Positions 4,336 to 24,689 of a stretch of 32,000 bases of DNA are shown here, piece after piece. Position 1 is the first letter of the stretch. Each line of letters starts with the position of its first letter. Below the pieces are notes generated by a model, which made no database searches, was not told the origin of the DNA, and saw only the letters and a list, made by a program, of their open reading frames with translations. The stretch covers positions 1 through 32,000 of the forward strand of contig JBHLMI010000004.1 in NCBI GenBank assembly GCA_048938295.1. The letters are read 5' to 3'. The position numbers and the translations under genes are program-made. The stretch comes from Promethearchaeota archaeon. GTDB taxonomy: Archaea > Asgardarchaeota > Hermodarchaeia > Hermodarchaeales > Hermodarchaeaceae.

Positions 4336-4845
4336 GTGATGGTTTTGCAGTTAGAATATATCTTACTGATTAACACATTAATTCAGATATTAGTAGAAGC
4401 TGCGGGTGGCATCATAGCTGGTATTGTAGCAGCAATATTTGCTGTCTATTTCACGAAGCGGTGGGAGAAGAAAGCTCGGATTGAAGCATATCGAAAGAGA
4501 CTAGTTTCGGAGATTGAGCTATTCCAAAAAGCTTGTCACGTTTTCGATGAGTCTGGACGAGGAACAGATCAAGCCGACGTTGTTAAGAACTTAGCCCTTC
4601 AAACCGCTCAACGCACAAGGGACACATTTACGCCTGAAACAATGGACAAATTTCCTTGGGATCTTCTGTGGCCATTCATCGATGAATTGATTCGTTTAGC
4701 AATCTTGGGTTTTGGCGAAATGAAATGGTTTCTTGATCAGGTAAGAAAATTAGAGCAAATGGCTGATGAGATTATTAAAAGACTCAATGTTATCAGAAGC
4801 GCTACTGTAAAAAGAAGAGAACCGGAACCCCAAGGCCCCGGATAG
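4336..4845 (+). CDS. Hypothetical N-terminally membrane-anchored helical protein
   Basis: 169 aa; TM segment followed by basic KRWEKKAR; SD AAGGAAGGTG overlapping the start. Confidence 0.7.
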   Translation: MMVLQLEYILLINTLIQILVEAAGGIIAGIVAAIFAVYFTKRWEKKARIEAYRKRLVSEIELFQKACHVFDESGRGTDQADVVKNLALQTAQRTRDTFTPETMDKFPWDLLWPFIDELIRLAILGFGEMKWFLDQVRKLEQMADEIIKRLNVIRSATVKRREPEPQGPG

Positions 4846-4884
4846 GTGTTGCAGAACCCAAGTTATGAAACAGGAAGAGAGAAC

Positions 4885-5157
4885 CTACCCTAATTCTTTG
4901 ATGCGCTGCCAGTTCTCGCGAGCCCATTCAAAGTCTGGGAATCGTTCCCGCGTGTACAAGTCGGTAATGCGCTGTCCAACAGCTGTCTTGATTTCGTGAG
5001 TGATGGCTCGCACTTCTTCCCGGAAATCTGACAGGCTCAACTCTTTGTTGTCCTTGTTCTCTATGAGAAAGTCAGCTAACTCGTCAAGGAAGAGGTTGAT
5101 CCCATCTTGAACAGCGCAAAGCCACTTGGTATCCATTGGAAAACTCCTAGTTCCCAT
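4885..5157 (-). CDS. Small hypothetical helical protein (likely start ATG 5157 or 5136)
   Basis: C-terminal ~83-90 aa of the tracked ORF look globular and amphipathic; the upstream part overlaps the neighbouring gene. Confidence 0.5.
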   Translation of the reverse strand: MGTRSFPMDTKWLCAVQDGINLFLDELADFLIENKDNKELSLSDFREEVRAITHEIKTAVGQRITDLYTRERFPDFEWARENWQRIKELG

Positions 5158-5246
5158 GAACAACACCTTGGAACCGAGAATGCAATTTTTCACTAAAGTG
5201 GAAAAAAAGGAAGAGTGAGAAGGCGTAAGCCCTCTCAGAAATATGT

Positions 5247-6251
5247 CTATATTGGTGGAGCTGGGTAAAGCGGGGTACAGTAGGTGGCAAAACATATCCA
5301 CCACCAGTTCGGAGTTCGGCAATAACGGTTATAGCCTCCTCCAAGGGCGAAATTGATGAGATCCACTGGTATGAACTGATCAATAGAACCATCAGGATTC
5401 GCGTCTAGTTCCCTAATACGTGAAATCCCTAGAAAGAACCCTCCGATGAGTATACCCACAACTCCGCCAATTGGACCTGAAATCCAAATAGCCAGTATGA
5501 CACTTATTACAAGCAAAATGAGCGTCTCAAGAAATCTCAAGTCTTGTTGAAGCATCAGATAGACATCGTATGCAGTGTAGTGTATGTGTAAAGCGTTAGG
5601 ATTGTAGAGTAGATATGGGGTCCATCCAATATTTATGCCCTCAGACCAAGTCCAAGCCATGGCTACGAGGGGTTTCTGTGGTTGGAGAATTTTTTCTGGT
5701 CCATCTGCATTAATGAAATCTTCGACTAAGGTTCTAGGAATTTCTCCAATATGGAAATACGACCAACACATTGTCAGAATAAATGCAGCTACATCAGCAT
5801 CGATAATCGTTGGAAACCCGACTACGATTTTACTTGTTATAGTGTAGGCAGCAGGAGCAGAAAAACACGCTGCAAAGTAATGTTCACCACTAGGAGAAGC
5901 CTCTATGATTTCTGTTATTTCATCCCAACACACTAGTGTCGATCCTATCGTTAATCCCGCTTCTATGCCATGCCCGACATAGAATATCTCTCCAATCGCT
6001 TTTCGTAATATTAGTTCAAATTGGACCTTATCATCTATTCTTAGATGCTTCGAATTAGGAATGTTATGTTCTAATTGAACGGTGGAGGCCTTAATTGCCA
6101 CGTCATCACCAAAGGAAAGAATTAATGGTCCTGTTATAGGAATGCCTTGGCCGAACACCGTTGGTAAGGCAAATAATGTTGTGCAAAAAGTTGTCACTAG
6201 GAATATTACGAAGACCTTTTTCTGTAAATGAGACATTAAACTAACTTCCAA
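5247..6251 (-). CDS. Secreted protein: signal peptide + caspase-hemoglobinase-fold (clan CD) His/Cys peptidase + hydrophobic glycine-zipper C-terminal region
   Basis: Signal-like aa 6-35; IFYVGHG (H94) and HYFAACFS (C129); IVVGF strand; TM/Gly zipper at aa 244-276 (GPIGGVVGILIGGFFLG). Confidence 0.65.
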   Translation of the reverse strand: MEVSLMSHLQKKVFVIFLVTTFCTTLFALPTVFGQGIPITGPLILSFGDDVAIKASTVQLEHNIPNSKHLRIDDKVQFELILRKAIGEIFYVGHGIEAGLTIGSTLVCWDEITEIIEASPSGEHYFAACFSAPAAYTITSKIVVGFPTIIDADVAAFILTMCWSYFHIGEIPRTLVEDFINADGPEKILQPQKPLVAMAWTWSEGINIGWTPYLLYNPNALHIHYTAYDVYLMLQQDLRFLETLILLVISVILAIWISGPIGGVVGILIGGFFLGISRIRELDANPDGSIDQFIPVDLINFALGGGYNRYCRTPNWWWICFATYCTPLYPAPPI

Positions 6252-6719
6252 TCAGGTAATTTCCGTTATTCTTAGAGCCGAGAATTTGCTGAGACCGAAT
6301 ACGATGAGAAACAAAGATGTTGTTGCTAGTACGACAGAGAGAATCGAAACTATTATTTCATAAGGGCTAACCAGAAATAACCAGCATAAGATACCTGTAA
6401 GAAGGGTACCACCCGGAATGAATAAACCTGCACCTAGACCTCTGCCTTGGCTATTATTGAAGTCGAAATAAAAAATCAGAATACCTGTTATGGATACTAT
6501 CAAAAAGAAGGAGGGAAGAACTAGAAACGCAAAGAATCCAAGTAAAATCGCTGTGAACAAGACAATAAATATCCCAATAGGGAAGAAATATGTTTTTGTC
6601 ACTAATCTGAAAGCCTGATACCAACGTGTATTCTGATTTTGTCGAAAGAACAAGTAAGCAAAGGTGCTCGCCGAAATAATCAAGATTAGATATATTAGTT
6701 CAGTTAACCAATCTGTCAT
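6252..6719 (-). CDS. Small polytopic membrane protein (4-5 TM), candidate immunity protein
   Basis: 155 aa, almost entirely hydrophobic; SD GGAGG; stop abuts the start of the secreted protease gene. Confidence 0.7.
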   Translation of the reverse strand: MTDWLTELIYLILIISASTFAYLFFRQNQNTRWYQAFRLVTKTYFFPIGIFIVLFTAILLGFFAFLVLPSFFLIVSITGILIFYFDFNNSQGRGLGAGLFIPGGTLLTGILCWLFLVSPYEIIVSILSVVLATTSLFLIVFGLSKFSALRITEIT

Positions 6720-6732
6720 TAAACCAATCCTC

Positions 6733-6816
6733 CATTCGAAATATCGAATGACTCGAACTAAAGAGTGATAATTCGAATGACTCCAACTATAATTTGCTAC
6801 CCTCAGAACTTAAATA
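6733..6816 (-). promoter_or_regulatory. Promoter with operator-like repeats for the 6719-5247 operon
   Basis: Minus-strand TATA TATTTAAG (6816-6809); 17-bp direct repeat TCGAATGACTC[G/C]AACTA (6744-6760, 6773-6789); inverted repeat CATTCGA-N4-TCGAATG (6733-6750). Confidence 0.55.
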
Positions 6817-6914
6817 TTCTCCTACTTTCAAGAAATTAAAATAATATGAACATTTTATCATCCTCACCGGGACTAGTACGGCAAGTCTAAGTGAGATAAG
6901 ATAAGGGCAATATC

Positions 6915-7097
6915 TTATTTGAGCACCTCTTCTTTGACAATGGTGAGGAAGCACTTGGTTGATCAGTAGCTCCGATAGACCTTCCCTGACGGCACGCTTA
7001 TGTGATATCCAGCCTCATAGATGATGCCCCTCCCACATTCATCGCATTGCATCTCATACATTTGAGCCAAGGGTTCCTCGGATTTTTGTGCCACCAT
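6915..7097 (-). CDS. 60-codon TRASH/MYM-like Zn-finger gene with in-frame TGA at the third Cys position (selenoprotein or pseudogene)
   Basis: MVAQKSEEPLAQMYEMQCDECGRGIIYEAGYHISVPSGKVYRSY*STKCFLTIVKEEVLK; strong SD GGTGGTGA; TGA at 6965-6963. Confidence 0.65.
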
Positions 7098-7133
7098 TTT
7101 ATCACCACCTTTCAGTTGTAAGTTGCTTACAGC

Positions 7134-8465
7134 CTACGTTTTCCTTTTCTTTTTCAGACGTTTCTCTATAAGCGCTGCCAACTGATCAAGCTCAGTTTCA
7201 CTCAATTCTTCCAAGCGTTGTGTTACGAACTCCTGGGTTTTAGGATCCTCTGCCAATGCAAGCAAGAGTCGGCGCATCTCAGGGTTTTCGTCGATTTGCT
7301 TCAATGTGGGAACAGCTCGCTCCTGATCTTCGAGCACTTCCTTTAATCGGGTTCGTTCCTGTTGGAGTTCATCGATTAACGGTTGTATCTCTCCACGAAT
7401 CCTCCCTTCAATGGCTTCAAGATCATAGCCTTCAGGAACCGCAAGAATCCGGGTGAACCCGTTCTCATAGAGGTGACGTACACTTTTGAATAGCTGGTCA
7501 ATGGTAGGTTTCGCGTAAGCCCCATTGTAGGGCACGCTGTGGGCCATGAGAATTTGTTTATGTGTATAACCACCAGGGTTATGATCCAGCTGAGTGCCAA
7601 ACCAACTCCGCAGCGCTCGCAACGATAACGGATTCTCACGCTGATCAGGGAACACCTTCTTCCCCAGCCGCCGCAACATTGCCCCAGCTGCGTTCTTGGT
7701 GAGCTTGCGTTCCTGTTCGTTCGGTTTCTCAACGAAAAGGTAGCTTTCAGGGGTGAGATCGCTTCGCGTTTTGAGATAGCGATCCAAGTGCTGCAAAGCT
7801 TCCGGGGTTATCCAGCTGATCATTTCAATACCGGTCTTTTGGCGTGGCTGATCAGGATCGTGGATGAAACCCCAATTTGGAAACTTACCTCGATCAATAT
7901 CACCGAGTTTGAGCTCTAGCAGATCAGATGAGCTACGACCGGTTGTGGCCGCAACGAAGATTAAGGCCTTAGCACGAACATCTGCGTATTCAAGGACTTT
8001 CGCGATTTCACCGGTGGTCAGGCCACCAGCCACCTGGCGCTGTGATCGTGTGAACCGGTGAAGCTGGGGAAGTGACACGTCATAATGCCGATAGAAGCTC
8101 TTGATACAGCCCACCATGCGGCTAATCGTGCGGCGGGTCTTCTTAGTGAATGGTTTTTCCCCTTGCGCGTAAGGCCCTTGGTCAAACACTAACACATGCT
8201 CAGGATGATCCTTGAGCAGCCATTGCCGGAAATGTTCGAGTCGATGTCGCCCGCTGAGTGACGAATCACGATTGAGCACCGGTTGCTGGCGGTAAGCCTG
8301 TTCATCTTCAATCAGCTGCTTCGGTGTTCGCTTGGTAAAGGCACAAAAGTAGAGCAAGGACAGGCTGTAACTCGGTGCGGTTCCCGGTGAAACGGTGGTC
8401 AACCAATCCACAACAAGGGAATCCTGTTCGAAGGACGCGCGGTTATGCCTGGAAATACGTGGCAT
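7134..8465 (-). CDS. int: Tyrosine recombinase/integrase with C-terminal coiled-coil extension
   Basis: N-terminal SAM-like domain; TTGRSSSDL box I, K210, RALR(283-286), H309, Y317; charged helical tail. Confidence 0.88.
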   Translation of the reverse strand: MPRISRHNRASFEQDSLVVDWLTTVSPGTAPSYSLSLLYFCAFTKRTPKQLIEDEQAYRQQPVLNRDSSLSGRHRLEHFRQWLLKDHPEHVLVFDQGPYAQGEKPFTKKTRRTISRMVGCIKSFYRHYDVSLPQLHRFTRSQRQVAGGLTTGEIAKVLEYADVRAKALIFVAATTGRSSSDLLELKLGDIDRGKFPNWGFIHDPDQPRQKTGIEMISWITPEALQHLDRYLKTRSDLTPESYLFVEKPNEQERKLTKNAAGAMLRRLGKKVFPDQRENPLSLRALRSWFGTQLDHNPGGYTHKQILMAHSVPYNGAYAKPTIDQLFKSVRHLYENGFTRILAVPEGYDLEAIEGRIRGEIQPLIDELQQERTRLKEVLEDQERAVPTLKQIDENPEMRRLLLALAEDPKTQEFVTQRLEELSETELDQLAALIEKRLKKKRKT

Positions 8466-19641: not shown

Positions 19642-20841
19642 TTAGGTTTGTCGCCGTCGAATCAGGACAACTGCTACTACACCAACAACCACGGTAGCAG
19701 ATATGGCTGTGACACCGAGTATCAAAGGCAGTAACTGTGGTTGATATTGTGCTGCGGGGATGATATAGTCTTCAACAAGATGCATTGGGTTAAACTCTGA
19801 ACTTCGGGCAGTGAAGACGACGACCATATCCTGGTCTGGAATGACGTAGATGTGTTGGTTCAAGTGGCCATGTGCGGCAAAGGATCCGATGTTGGGGTGG
19901 ATCCACCATTGGTAGCCGTATTCAGTTTGACTATCTACAGTGGCATGGCCAATTGAGGAAGCAGCTACCCAGGAAGCAGATACGATTTGTTCTCCATCCC
20001 AGGTGCCGTTATGGAGGTAGAGGAAGCCAAACTTAGCCATGTCTCGGGCTCGAAGTTGGAGGGCTGAGCCACCATTGACATTGCCTTGTGGATCTCGGGA
20101 CCAATAGTAATCCGTGATGCCAAGGGGTGCAAACAAATTTTCCTCAGCAAAGTCCTGTGTGGACACGCCGGTTGTTTCATGAACAATGGCTGAGAGGAGA
20201 TGTGAACCGCCGGTGTTATAGACCCAATGTGAACCGGGTGTATAAGCCATAGGTCGATTAATGACGAATTCCACCCAGTTGAGACTTGTCGTCATGCGAT
20301 CCCAGTCATTGTTTGGATTTCCATAAGGGTAGGTCCATTCATCCCAAGGAAGGCCAGAAGTCATTGTCAATAGGTGTTCAACGGTAATCGCTTCTTTTCG
20401 GCTGTCCAGGTTTTCAATGGTGAGATGAGAAAAGATATCCACAAGTCGATCGTCAAGATTTAGATAGCCTTGATCGATTGCGATGCCGATGAGAGCTGAG
20501 CTTATACTCTTGGTGCAGGAATAGATGTTGCTGGTTATGTTTACACGGTCTGGGAGCTCCATGTAGTTTTCATAGATAAGATAGCCGTGGCGGACAATGA
20601 GGATGGACCGTAAGGTGAAGCTCCATAGTTGACCATCAAGGTATTGTTCCATTTGCCGCAGCACGATAGAATTTACGCCCTGAGACTCTGGAGTCGCCGA
20701 TAACCAGTCCTCAGTGGGCCAATAGTCAGGAACAGTTGATTGGGCTTTCGCAGGTACCATTTCAGGAACGATGAAGAGTGAAATAAGAAGAAGCAGGAGA
20801 AGTGATCCCATCACAAATCGTTCGAGCTTCATTGCTATCAT
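19642..20841 (-). CDS. Beta-lactamase-fold (class C/NylB-like) serine hydrolase, secreted and membrane-anchored
   Basis: SCTK (SxxK), HLLTMTSG, WVYN, YGYQWW; signal peptide and C-terminal TM plus RRR. Confidence 0.9.
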   Translation of the reverse strand: MIAMKLERFVMGSLLLLLLISLFIVPEMVPAKAQSTVPDYWPTEDWLSATPESQGVNSIVLRQMEQYLDGQLWSFTLRSILIVRHGYLIYENYMELPDRVNITSNIYSCTKSISSALIGIAIDQGYLNLDDRLVDIFSHLTIENLDSRKEAITVEHLLTMTSGLPWDEWTYPYGNPNNDWDRMTTSLNWVEFVINRPMAYTPGSHWVYNTGGSHLLSAIVHETTGVSTQDFAEENLFAPLGITDYYWSRDPQGNVNGGSALQLRARDMAKFGFLYLHNGTWDGEQIVSASWVAASSIGHATVDSQTEYGYQWWIHPNIGSFAAHGHLNQHIYVIPDQDMVVVFTARSSEFNPMHLVEDYIIPAAQYQPQLLPLILGVTAISATVVVGVVAVVLIRRRQT

Positions 20842-21847: not shown

Positions 21848-22009
21848 ATGACGTTTGAGAAAAGTGAGTCTGATGAGTTCATAATGTATGAGGAAGAACC
21901 GTCAAGGCGTAGAAAAGCAATCGGCTGCTGTGCGATTCTAATAATCATTATTTTCTTCGTTGCGCTGCTAGTCGGTTACACACCCTGGTTTCGACCCTTC
22001 TATCCTTAG
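21848..22009 (+). CDS. 53-aa single-pass membrane micro-protein
   Basis: MTFEKSESDEFIMYEEEPSRRRKAIGCCAILIIIIFFVALLVGYTPWFRPFYP; SD GAGGA; acidic, then basic, then TM organisation. Confidence 0.7.
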   Translation: MTFEKSESDEFIMYEEEPSRRRKAIGCCAILIIIIFFVALLVGYTPWFRPFYP

Positions 22010-22058
22010 CCAGCGACTCCTGACCTATTGACAGTGTATATAACAAGAATGGAAGTGG

Positions 22059-22210
22059 AACGGCTCCCAGGACACCCGAGTTGGACCAAGAGGTCAGGGA
22101 TTGGAGCTTTTCGGTCCAGAGATCCAAGGTTTTCCAATGCTTGGGGCCTACTGCTGGTGGACAACGGATTTTCGGAAAGCCGGAAATTCGGATGTCCGAT
22201 GGGAGCCGTT
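22059..22210 (+). ncRNA. Candidate structured non-coding RNA (strand uncertain)
   Basis: ~23-bp closing helix between the two ends, three internal hairpins, TATA-like GTATATAA at 22036-22043; no credible protein ORF. Confidence 0.55.
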
Positions 22211-22217
22211 GGAGGAG

Positions 22218-23435
22218 TCATGTTGAGGGGGATAGCTTGTGTCTCCGCCAATACAGGAGATACACACTGACCGCAGAGACGGTGACGAGGATGGCTATTG
22301 CACCAATGATTGCCGCAGTGATCAGGTTTCCATCAGGGGGTGGGCCTCTACTTACGGAATATCCTGCTGCAGGTAAGATGTAGTTTTCAAGGAGGACATC
22401 ATCTTGAAGGGAGTTTGTCTGTGCGGTAAAGACCACGACCATACTCACCCTAGGGAAAACGTAGATGAGTTGTCCCAGGTAACCACGGGCAGAGTATGAT
22501 TCAATGAGAGGAGAGGTCCACCATTGATAGCCATAACCTGTGTCAGCACTCAGCGTCATATGGCTAGCGGTGGCGGTGGCAACCCAGCTCTCAGGCACAA
22601 GTTGTACGCCATCCCATGTGCCATTATTCAGGAAGAGGAAGCCCAATTTAGCCATATCGCGGGGTGTTAACCGGAGATTGGCACCACCAAACGCATTGCC
22701 GTCGGGGTCTTCACCCCAGTCATAATGGGTGATTCCCAGGGGGGTGAAGAGCTTGTCTTCTGCATACTCTTGGGTGTACTGCCCTGTGGAGATATTGACG
22801 ATGGTTGAGAGGAGATGAGAAGCACCTGAATTGTAATTCCATACTTCACCCGGTTCATGGGCCATGGGTGTGTCAAGGACATATTGCACCCAATCTGTAC
22901 TGCTTGTCATTTGAGTGTAGGGATCTATAGCATGATACCCGACCTCTGGCCAGTCAAATCCCGCTGTCATTGTAAGGAGATCTTCAATGGTCATTGCCTC
23001 TTTTCGGGCATCCACATTTGCAATCGTTCGATCCGTGAAGTAATCAAGGACTAGTTCATCAAGACTACTGATATAACCTTCAGAAAAGGCGATTCCCACA
23101 AGGGTTGAAGTGAAGCTCTTAGTGCAAGAGAAGATATTTCGCCGAGTTGTTTCACCGGATGAACCATAATAGGATTCATGGACAATATAGCCATTCTTGA
23201 CGACAACTGTGGACACCATGGCAAACCCCCAATCAATCGATTCAATGTAATCATCCATGGCAGCCAGATATGCTGAATCCATACCCTGAACTTCTGGCGT
23301 TGAAGTTTGCCATCCAGTGGTGGGCCAATAATCGGGAACCCAAGCCGTCTGAGATTGCCCTCCACTGACCGGTATGATGACCATGAAGAGCAGCAGAAGA
23401 GGGATACAGAGGAGGCTTGAGCGTTTCAGTATCAT
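22218..23435 (-). CDS. Beta-lactamase-fold serine hydrolase, paralog of 19642-20841
   Basis: PDYWPT, SCTK, LLTMTAG, WNYN, YGYQWW; signal peptide and C-terminal TM. Confidence 0.9.
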   Translation of the reverse strand: MILKRSSLLCIPLLLLFMVIIPVSGGQSQTAWVPDYWPTTGWQTSTPEVQGMDSAYLAAMDDYIESIDWGFAMVSTVVVKNGYIVHESYYGSSGETTRRNIFSCTKSFTSTLVGIAFSEGYISSLDELVLDYFTDRTIANVDARKEAMTIEDLLTMTAGFDWPEVGYHAIDPYTQMTSSTDWVQYVLDTPMAHEPGEVWNYNSGASHLLSTIVNISTGQYTQEYAEDKLFTPLGITHYDWGEDPDGNAFGGANLRLTPRDMAKLGFLFLNNGTWDGVQLVPESWVATATASHMTLSADTGYGYQWWTSPLIESYSARGYLGQLIYVFPRVSMVVVFTAQTNSLQDDVLLENYILPAAGYSVSRGPPPDGNLITAAIIGAIAILVTVSAVSVYLLYWRRHKLSPST

Positions 23436-23615: not shown

Positions 23616-24689
23616 TTAACTATATCCAGCTTTTTCGAGTAGTTCATCCAGGCATATTTCACGTAGCCCCTTGAAATGGCGTTGGGGATACAAGACAAGA
23701 GTTTCAACAGATTCAATCAGTGGGCCTTGTTTGAGGGATTGATGGATTTTTTCAAAGGTACCAACAGTCTCAACGTTGAAGGTGCTGAAGACCATTGGTT
23801 CAGATGCCGAGGCATAAGAGTACCAATGAGCCACAGGATATTCTTTGCGTAGCCAGGAATCGACATCGACGGGATTACCTTGGTCTTCATCGTAAGTGAG
23901 GCGAACAGCATATGAGATACTGCCTCCAGCGTTTAGGTTCCAGATGCTTCGGAAATGAACGGGCTCAGATGAGGCGCGTTCGTTAGGAGGTAGATTGTCT
24001 CGAACGACGAAAGCTCGGGTCGTTGCAGAATTCCCTCCTAACTGGTCTAATACACGACGAATGGTCCGGGCTGTTAATCCGGTACGTTTTGCCAATTCTA
24101 CAATGGACATACGAGCGTCTATTCGAAGTTCATTTAATATCTTCATTTGAAGATCTGAAAAATTGACCTTGCCACCCTTATCCGTTAGAAGAGTGTGAAT
24201 TTCGACATTTGTCACGCCCTCTTGTTTTCGGAGAAATCGGCTTAGTTCCCCTAGGCCTTGAGCGGTTATGTATTCTCCGAATGCCATTATCCCGCCATTG
24301 GAAAGTGAGGCGGTCCGATGAATCATGGGATTGTTTCCGATGGTGTTGATTAAGTGTTCATCGTCTTGACTGCCGTCTGTATTAATGAAGGCGACAATCA
24401 TCTCTGCATCAATCATGCTCAAGCTTAGCCAGACGGAGAATGCCTTGAGTACTCCAGACTCTCTGAGTTTTGTCACTCGTTTTTTGATAGCGTTGGCGCT
24501 GATGTTGAATTGTCGTGCTAGAGTTTCATAGGATGTGCGACAGTTGCCATCCAAGGCATAGAAGATGCCTTTGTCAATTAGGTCCAATGAAGACACCACG
24601 CAGCAGGGGAGAGCACCCATTCGAGTAGGGGAGATAGCTAATCCGTTGAGTTCCAGCTTTTCAACGAAGGCTCTACTCGTAAGCAGCAT
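23616..24689 (-). CDS. Lrp/AsnC-family regulator with two tandem HTH+RAM units (start uncertain)
   Basis: IDKGIFYALDGNCRTSYETLARQFNISANAIKKRVTKL and LQMKILNELRIDARMSIVELAKRTGLTARTIRR. Confidence 0.85.
   Translation of the reverse strand: MLLTSRAFVEKLELNGLAISPTRMGALPCCVVSSLDLIDKGIFYALDGNCRTSYETLARQFNISANAIKKRVTKLRESGVLKAFSVWLSLSMIDAEMIVAFINTDGSQDDEHLINTIGNNPMIHRTASLSNGGIMAFGEYITAQGLGELSRFLRKQEGVTNVEIHTLLTDKGGKVNFSDLQMKILNELRIDARMSIVELAKRTGLTARTIRRVLDQLGGNSATTRAFVVRDNLPPNERASSEPVHFRSIWNLNAGGSISYAVRLTYDEDQGNPVDVDSWLRKEYPVAHWYSYASASEPMVFSTFNVETVGTFEKIHQSLKQGPLIESVETLVLYPQRHFKGLREICLDELLEKAGYS

Follow-up and report, generated by a model that had tools for sequence, protein, structure and literature searches.

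Identification of a conserved element behind a hydrolase gene

The question raised by this locus is whether the long self-complementary stretch lying directly behind a hydrolase gene specifies an RNA and, if so, from which strand, by which transcript and as a member of which class. The window, i.e. the whole stretch of 32,000 nucleotides that was analysed, represents contig C33 of a 2.5-Mb MAG of 66 contigs (G000, 91.6% complete). From the sequence alone, the initial annotation had proposed at this place an undescribed, multibranched ncRNA read from the plus strand, with a bulged terminal helix and its own TATA box. The reading that we favour, and hold to be moderately probable as a whole, is that the minus strand of 22042-22217 carries a structured RNA domain, called RNA A hereafter, which would be the 3' end of the hydrolase mRNA or an sRNA derived from that 3' UTR, belongs to a Hermodarchaeota-specific family and would work in a manner resembling the bacterial CcaF1-CcsR system.

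RNA A was found once in G000. Homologs were searched by BLAST in 40 relatives and recovered in 10 of the 14 other genomes of the genus, once in each, with identities of 75-96% and E-values ranging from 7e-26 to 6.5e-75, and no convincing match was obtained among these relatives beyond the genus. In the alignment that includes the flanks (A2), conservation begins and ends sharply while the flanks diverge, which delimits an element of about 160-175 nt. The indels observed are of 1-4 nt, so that protein coding is ruled out. An apparent tandem pair of RNA A (L068, positions 4829-5208 of JABAOF010002726.1) was rejected as a scaffold chimera, in which a G007-like and a G014-like strain are joined at NN. 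A search of public sequencing runs recovered the DNA of the element in 11 DNA runs (sediment, mangrove and soil metagenomes) and in 0 RNA runs.

The TGA stop codon of the hydrolase gene is located 8 nt ahead of P1, where RNA A starts, on the same strand. TAA replaces TGA in 1 of 9 genomes. Stop-codon read-through and Sec-type recoding were discarded for the hydrolase, since in these 9 genomes the next in-frame stop is reached after anything from 1 to 89 codons. The gene ordering regulator-hydrolase-RNA A is found in 9 of 11 genomes. In the two others, G010 (L009, contig C7) and G013 (L010, contig C446), the body of the hydrolase gene is lost and RNA A is still present behind the regulator, about 100 nt after a decayed remnant that resembles the tail of the hydrolase (YLL..R.R...P..STS*). 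Since it persists without the hydrolase body, the RNA is kept for its own sake. All coordinates are collected in Table 1.

The neighbourhood also comprises a second beta-lactamase-fold hydrolase paralogue (19642-20841, minus strand), 1.4 kb downstream in the window, and a short ORF (53 aa, 21848-22009, plus strand) for which one transmembrane stretch is predicted. This ORF converges on RNA A, and its C-terminal end is seemingly conserved in several relatives (TTCCTTAG-type, alignment A2).

Table 1. Coordinates of RNA A, of its structural parts and neighbouring genes in the window, and of the related loci in G000
Feature	Position	Strand	Comment
RNA A, whole conserved element	22042..22217	-	Hydrolase stop codon to pyrimidine/U-rich tail; sharp edges in alignment A2
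P1, 5' strand, ACGGCUCCC	22201..22209	-	Partner 22060-22068
P1, 3' strand, GGGAGCCGU	22060..22068	-	Partner 22201-22209
P2, 5' strand, GGACAUCCGA	22188..22197	-	Partner 22070-22079, 10 bp
P2, 3' strand	22070..22079	-	Partner 22188-22197
Core box: AAUCCGUUGUCC, small hairpin UCCAC...GUAGG, then CCCCAAGC	22139..22170	-	Alignments A2 and A4
P3 (UUUCCG.A / U.UGGAAA), predicted around the core box	22131..22178	-	RNAalifold
P4 hairpin (GGACCGA / UUGGUCC)	22083..22117	-	22111-17 with 22083-89; 7 bp, 100% paired
3' tail, UCCACUUCC then U-rich run	22042..22059	-	Likely archaeal oligo-U terminator
TATA-like GTATATAA	22036..22043	+	Outside RNA A, in variable flank, 3' of the folded strand
Beta-lactamase-fold serine hydrolase, 405 aa, signal peptide and C-terminal anchor	22218..23435	-	PF00144, E 2.5e-37
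Regulator, 357 aa, two AsnC-type winged-helix domains	23616..24689	-	Upstream of the hydrolase
RNA B	G000 C65, cut contig end		CM R1
RNA C	G000 C4:7831-7974	-	CM R2
RNA D	G000 C4:8332-8461	-	CM search
ORF_C	G000 C4:8029-8169	-	Tandem module with RNA C 7831-7974
ORF_D	G000 C4:8523-8657	-	Tandem module with RNA D 8332-8461

Comparison with known RNA classes

A comparison with Rfam 15 yielded no family: no match was found across the window at gathering thresholds and none on 21900-22350 at E<=10. The loci of the paralogues B and C/D described below gave no match at E<=0.1. The classes covered include tRNA, 5S, SRP, RNase P, Y RNA, vault, C/D, H/ACA, SECIS, riboswitches and ar14/CcsR. No tRNA was detected at RNA A by ARAGORN. 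A divergent SRP, RNase P or 5S RNA was rejected on the ground that the canonical ones are present elsewhere in the genome, SRP on C35 (123 bits), RNase P on C47 (177 bits) and 5S on C35 (77 bits). The statement that the stretch resembles none of tRNA, 5S, SRP and RNase P thus stands.

Two further identities were discarded. A C/D or H/ACA guide is contradicted by the lack of UGAUGA, by CUGA occurring solely in the loop of G000, and by the 3' flank of P1, which reads UCCACUUCC on the minus strand (alignment A4). A Y RNA identity, and with it the loose likeness to Y and vault RNAs suggested from the sequence, was abandoned as no TROVE/Ro gene (PF05731) was found in G000 at its 91.6% completeness, while the control genomes did match. 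As a side observation on the RNA genes of G000, the 16S rRNA 3' region at C48, around position 1306 (plus strand), reads AAGTCGTAACAAGGTAGCCGTA and then runs into unrelated sequence, the usual end being ...GGATCACCTCC; this may be an insertion, an intron or a contig artefact.

Reality and strand of the fold

The pairings described in the initial annotation are present in the sequence, namely the perfect 11-nt pairing of 22059-69 (AACGGCTCCCA) with 22200-10 and, beyond a 2-nt bulge, the helix between 22070-81 and 22186-97. Ten related genomes retain both of these long end-to-end helices as well as the hairpin at 22082-22118. The two smaller hairpins, at 22124-44 and 22165-82, did not survive the comparison: they rest on invariant or non-compensating columns and are absent in G010, G013 and G008. 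A stretch of 160 nt beats 200 of 200 dinucleotide shuffles in folding energy on either strand (plus strand, -72.1 kcal/mol, z -4.29; minus strand, -59.9 kcal/mol, z -4.35). As both strands fold well, the strand is undecidable by thermodynamics.

The substitutions observed between genomes discriminate between the two strands. The consensus calculated by RNAalifold is better, and covariation-positive, on the minus strand. The same 38 pairs correspond to 378 Watson-Crick, 37 G.U and 3 mismatched cells when read on the minus strand, versus 378 Watson-Crick, 1 G.U and 39 mismatched cells on the plus strand, and the only substitutions accepted in P2 and P4 are those that yield a minus-strand G.U. 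Moreover, U-rich runs flank RNA A at its 3' end on the minus strand only, and no T-run follows on the plus strand. From the G.U pattern and the U-rich tail we deduced that RNA A is antisense to the molecule initially modelled. The plus-strand GTATATAA, presented as the TATA box of the RNA, is in fact downstream of it and, the RNA being on the minus strand, is irrelevant as a promoter. Thus, the idea of an undescribed, structured and multibranched ncRNA closed by a bulged terminal helix is upheld by the comparative data and the lack of an Rfam match, and its assignment to the plus strand is not.

Within the A family, 99.3% of the helix cells pair, versus 25-54% when the partners are slid. The long end-to-end helix is real and conserved. 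Taken by itself, the A family exhibits no significant covariation (1 compensatory pair, matched by 96 of 500 shuffles) because the helices barely vary.

P1 is formed of 9 bp, with 99 of 99 cells paired (100%) in 11 genomes, and all 9 pairs differ on both sides between the paralogues A and B in the CM-fitted alignment. An internal loop of 3-4 nt on one side and 1 nt on the other separates it from P2, in which 5 pairs vary one-sidedly, only via G.U on the minus strand, and 1 compensatory change occurs. The core box is located within a block of about 48 nt which is almost free of substitutions in the 11 A-family genomes, and it recurs in the paralogues B, C and D. The 7 pairs of P3 are all invariant, so that covariation neither supports nor contradicts this helix. 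P4 carries a pyrimidine-rich loop of 21 nt with an invariant ACCUCUU at its end; 2 of its pairs vary, solely through G.U on the minus strand, and its equivalent in the B family exhibits 4 compensatory pairs. In the predicted fold the 5' tail is a single-stranded CUCCUCC and the 3' tail a single-stranded UCCACUUCC. Reading A2 on the minus strand, runs of T5-T6 are found within about 10-20 nt of P1 in most relatives. An oligo-T/U run is the usual archaeal terminator signal, and the tail of 22042-22217 is likely to be such a terminator.

Detection of the paralogues

Two covariance models were used, R1 built on A alone and R2 on A and B. They match RNA A at 22049-22219 on the minus strand with 186 and 151 bits, respectively. 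R1 detected a second, weaker full-length match, named B, in most genomes of the genus; R2 detected C and then D. Each genome comprises at least four or five diverged members of the family. The features that they have in common are a long closing helix, an (A)UCCGUUG box, a GGNCC hairpin with a pyrimidine-rich loop or a YUCUUGG box, and a pyrimidine/U tail.

In B alone, 7 pairs are doubly changed, a number reached in 0 of 500 shuffles (MAFFT alignment), and D exhibits 5 compensatory pairs. For A and B together, 26 of 38 pairs are compensatory, against 0 of 500 shuffles, in a CM-fitted alignment that leans towards the model. An all-against-all covariation scan was also run on the B and C alignments, in which phylogenetic noise swamps the signal. 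Because the helices of the paralogues differ in compensating ways, A and its paralogues form a real family of structured RNAs.

Searches with the covariance models recovered the family in 11 of 14 further genomes of the genus; none of 4 genomes from the sister genus and none of 132 from the remaining Asgard archaea gave a match. The genomes G002, G005 and G006, in which A and B have no match, comprise diverged family members behind micro-ORFs. A scan with exact patterns over 185,579 species returned 16 matches in Asgard MAGs labelled Hermodarchaeota, Promethearchaeota, Thorarchaeota or uncultured archaeon, most of them on contigs that match the genomes of the genus already found. Two bacterial matches of the same scan were set aside as chance hits, the covariance model giving them no score.

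The paralogues are each syntenic and are old. B is located near a paralogue of the hydrolase (48% identical), and C and D adjoin two paralogues of the regulator (33-35% identical), which points to old segmental duplications. The modules of contig C4 converge on two tandem dual-wHTH regulator genes (5412-6392 and 6594-7589).

Association with a microprotein

B, C, D and a further member, F, are located 15-75 nt behind genes for a basic microprotein of 40-47 aa, and they end in oligo-U. More generally, 5 of the 5 RNAs of G000 share their strand with an upstream ORF and lie about 8-75 nt past its stop codon, with U-rich or pyrimidine ends. RNA A has no micro-ORF, and its link to the microprotein is through paralogy only.

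The C and D modules share one layout: an SD, an ORF of 40-47 codons, a spacer of 60-70 nt, the RNA and a U-rich/pyrimidine tail (loci L091, L048 and L075 all correspond to G000:C4:7831-8657, minus strand). An ncRNA of about 900 nt upstream of C, first hinted at by six-frame tblastn, was rejected, the region consisting of two micro-ORF and RNA modules. In G000:C65:1-362, B is preceded by a homologue of 45 aa and a truncated one of 27 aa, and RNA B itself is cut by the contig end. A fourth homologue is encoded at G000:C57:6874-7110 (L105); the RNA behind it measures about 100 nt, contains related boxes and ends in UUUUUU. The C57 and C65 microprotein paralogues read ...GERAALGCRNPHPTP...SRRGSKW.

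The microproteins are rich in K/R, with the invariant residues M17, E21, R22, G26, N29, P30, P34, R35, R37, S45 and R47. They exhibit no Pfam or NCBIfam match even at E<=10. Among 5.8 billion proteins they form 25 clusters, of which 7 bear an organism label, in every case a MAG labelled Promethearchaeota or Thorarchaeota. The microprotein was detected in 17 of 18 further genomes of the class and in none of the 381 Asgard genomes outside it. The AlphaFold2 model is of low confidence (pLDDT 56) and is uninformative on RNA binding.

Gene order and strand fit this arrangement in the 4 modules of G000 (B, C, D and F) and in 11 more loci from relatives and the sister genus. In the sister genus, a stretch with a stable fold and then a U-run were observed behind each of the micro-ORFs examined. 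R2 gives only 5-7 bits on the 3' regions of these micro-ORFs, and homology is unproven despite the GUAGGUCCA box which some of them carry. At loci L106-L119 of this genus (G015, G017 and G018), the structured 3' regions behind each micro-ORF form a subfamily with ...CUGAACCC...GGGUGUCGG... in common and a hairpin at the end, ahead of the U-run; these may constitute a distinct RNA family tied to the same microprotein. Taken together, RNA A is a genus-restricted member of a new RNA/microprotein module found at the level of the class.

Transcription, proposed mechanism and alternative explanations

The SRP, RNase P and 5S genes and most of the tRNA genes listed exhibit a TTAAAWA-type box at about -30, and no such box was found upstream of A or C. 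Since, in addition, all five RNAs of G000 lie close behind ORFs of the same strand, co-transcription with the upstream gene is favoured. A 3'-UTR element of the gene at 22218, mentioned in the initial annotation as an alternative, has become the leading reading of transcription. The data establish the structure, the strand, the conservation, the paralogy and the association of the paralogues with micro-ORFs, whereas co-transcription, processing, protein binding and targets are features that we infer.

In the proposed mechanism, RNA A would most likely form the 3' end of the transcript of the hydrolase gene and would act within that mRNA or, once released, as a stable 3'-UTR-derived sRNA. P1 and P2 are stacked and close a junction comprising the invariant box and the pyrimidine-loop hairpin. 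By analogy with CcaF1-CcsR, P1 together with the U-tract could ensure termination of the transcript and protection of its 3' end. A dedicated partner would bind the invariant AAUCCGUUGUCC/GUAGG box, the basic microproteins being the most plausible candidates. Purine-rich, SD-like targets in mRNAs could be contacted by the 5' CUCCUCC tail and by the exposed C/U-rich loop, in which ACCUCUU is invariant and CCCCUCC usual. Upstream of ORF starts in this genome, GGAGG, GAGGT and GGTGA are found at 7-9 times the frequency of the control CCTCC. The C-rich loop is variable, CCCCUCC being absent in G000; neither the SD regions nor the purine box of RNA C were seen to covary with it. The A/B loop motif UCCCCUCCA is complementary to UGGAGGGGAAGG, which is invariant in RNA C. 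A pairing of this motif with UGGAGGGGA, likewise invariant in RNA C, or with the SDs of the micro-ORFs was considered and set aside as speculation: the sequences are complementary, but no compensating changes occur in the genomes in which the loop varies (G000, G001 and G014).

A different origin of the transcript would be an independent sRNA gene on the minus strand, started by a weak promoter within the last codons of the hydrolase and acting in trans as a riboregulator through its anti-SD-like loop. Such a promoter would predict that RNA A and the tail remnant of the hydrolase survive together, as they do in G010 and G013, and a conserved TWAYGATGATGTCAC box located 17-27 nt before P1 in B could be an atypical TATA element. 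The missing TTAAAWA-type box ahead of A and C, together with the position of all five members of G000 close behind an ORF of their own strand, speaks against it, and we regard this explanation as doubtful.

The transcript of the hydrolase gene might also end in a purely cis-acting element, a terminator or exonuclease block whose sole role would be to stabilise the mRNA ahead of it, neither a partner nor trans targets being involved. RNA A is indeed directly 3' of stop codons and combines a long GC-rich closing helix with a U-tract, and some micro-ORFs of the sister genus are followed by a simple hairpin and a U-run. Neither termination nor protection would necessitate the near-invariant block of about 48 nt, nor boxes that are common to paralogues with otherwise diverged helices, and oligo-U alone suffices for archaeal termination. 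This explanation therefore appears improbable.

An element acting at the level of DNA, i.e. a MITE, a mobile repeat or an attC-like site folding as single-stranded DNA, would account for the perfect 11-bp terminal inverted repeat, and a folded single DNA strand would also explain the strand-specific G.T pairing. Each paralogue is however present in a single copy, whose syntenic position is fixed in up to 10 species, and target-site duplications are lacking. The interior is better conserved than the ends, a U-tract lies behind, and the sole tandem copy (L068) is the chimera with NN mentioned above. The element is thus most improbably one of DNA, and the MITE alternative raised in the initial annotation falls with it. 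Finally, a plus-strand ncRNA driven by GTATATAA can hardly be credited: such an RNA would fold well too and is preceded by an A/T-rich stretch in G000, but GTATATAA is unconserved even in a 96%-identical relative, no T-run follows on that strand, and the G.U and mismatch counts are those of the opposite one.

The 3'-UTR reading can be extended to a broader picture, which we put forward as tentative and rather unlikely. The Hermodarchaeia would possess private small RNPs, in which a disordered microprotein would fold onto the 3' RNA of its own mRNA; A would have been captured behind a secreted hydrolase, the anti-SD-like loops would regulate translation, and the whole would be an independent archaeal counterpart of CcaF1-CcsR.

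In the literature searched, no Asgard-specific ncRNA family beyond rRNA, tRNA, SRP and RNase P RNA is described, and nothing was found on ncRNAs of Hermodarchaeota. New here is a covariation-supported family with its boundaries, strand, paralogues and recurrent genetic link to a lineage-specific microprotein. With its covariance model, annotators can mask conserved non-coding stretches that would otherwise be puzzling, amounting to about 0.5-1 kb in each genome. If the RNA and the microprotein interact, the combination of a small basic protein and an sRNA from its own 3' UTR would have arisen independently in archaea and bacteria, and would give access to post-transcriptional regulation in the prokaryotes most closely related to eukaryotes. 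Should the RNP reading be true, Asgard archaea would gain their first described RNP family that is lineage-specific.

Comparison with known systems

With MITEs and structured interspersed repeats, RNA A shares a terminal inverted repeat and an intergenic position at a gene end; it departs from them by the single copy of each paralogue, stable synteny, the lack of target-site duplications and a strand-specific G.U evolution. Like Y and vault RNAs, it has a long bulged terminal helix, a pyrimidine-rich internal loop and a 3' oligo-U. It differs from them in that G000 has no TROVE/Ro protein, no Rfam Y or vault family matches and the family is tied to the 3' ends of ORFs.

SgrS/SgrT, RNAIII/delta-haemolysin and SR1/SR1P are dual-function sRNAs. 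B, C, D and F are similar to them in that a predicted transcript of about 350-420 nt would combine a peptide and a structured RNA domain, a likeness that is inapplicable to RNA A.

Bacterial 3'-UTR-derived sRNAs include CpxQ and SroC. [quoted passage not shown] As in RNA A, a conserved structure is located directly past the stop codon, and it ends at the terminator of the mRNA, as RNA A probably would, whereas the bacterial sRNAs are released by RNase E and bound by Hfq or ProQ, and RNA A is much larger and more structured. To our knowledge, RNase E is absent from archaea.

In the cuckoo loci of Rhodobacter and other Alphaproteobacteria, CcaF1, a small arginine-rich DUF1127 protein, binds the CcsR sRNAs cut from its own 3' UTR and affects their maturation (Grutzner et al. 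2021, PMC8034643), and the loops of these sRNAs carry CCUCCUCCC anti-SD motifs (PMC8034643). Several traits recur here: a gene for a small arginine-rich protein (about 47-71 aa) is followed on the same strand by a structured RNA, C/U-rich anti-SD motifs are present (CCUCCUCCC there; CUCCUCC, CCCCUCC and ACCUCUU here), each genome comprises several paralogous loci, and a terminator closes the unit. The differences are equally clear. The two systems belong to different domains of life, and the Asgard microprotein has no DUF1127, Pfam or NCBIfam match. CcsR RNAs form two simple hairpins with one CCUCCUCCC each, whereas here one pyrimidine-loop hairpin is enclosed in a closed multibranched fold of 130-175 nt. 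RNA A stands behind a 405-aa hydrolase and not behind a microprotein, and CUCCUCC is found only in its 5' tail, CCCCUCC/ACCUCUU being in the loop. Membership of the CcaF1-CcsR family was consequently rejected, on the lack of DUF1127 and of an Rfam match (ar14/CcsR included) and on the different fold. The resemblance would be at most functional and convergent. Among documented systems, CcaF1-CcsR is the closest functional analogue.
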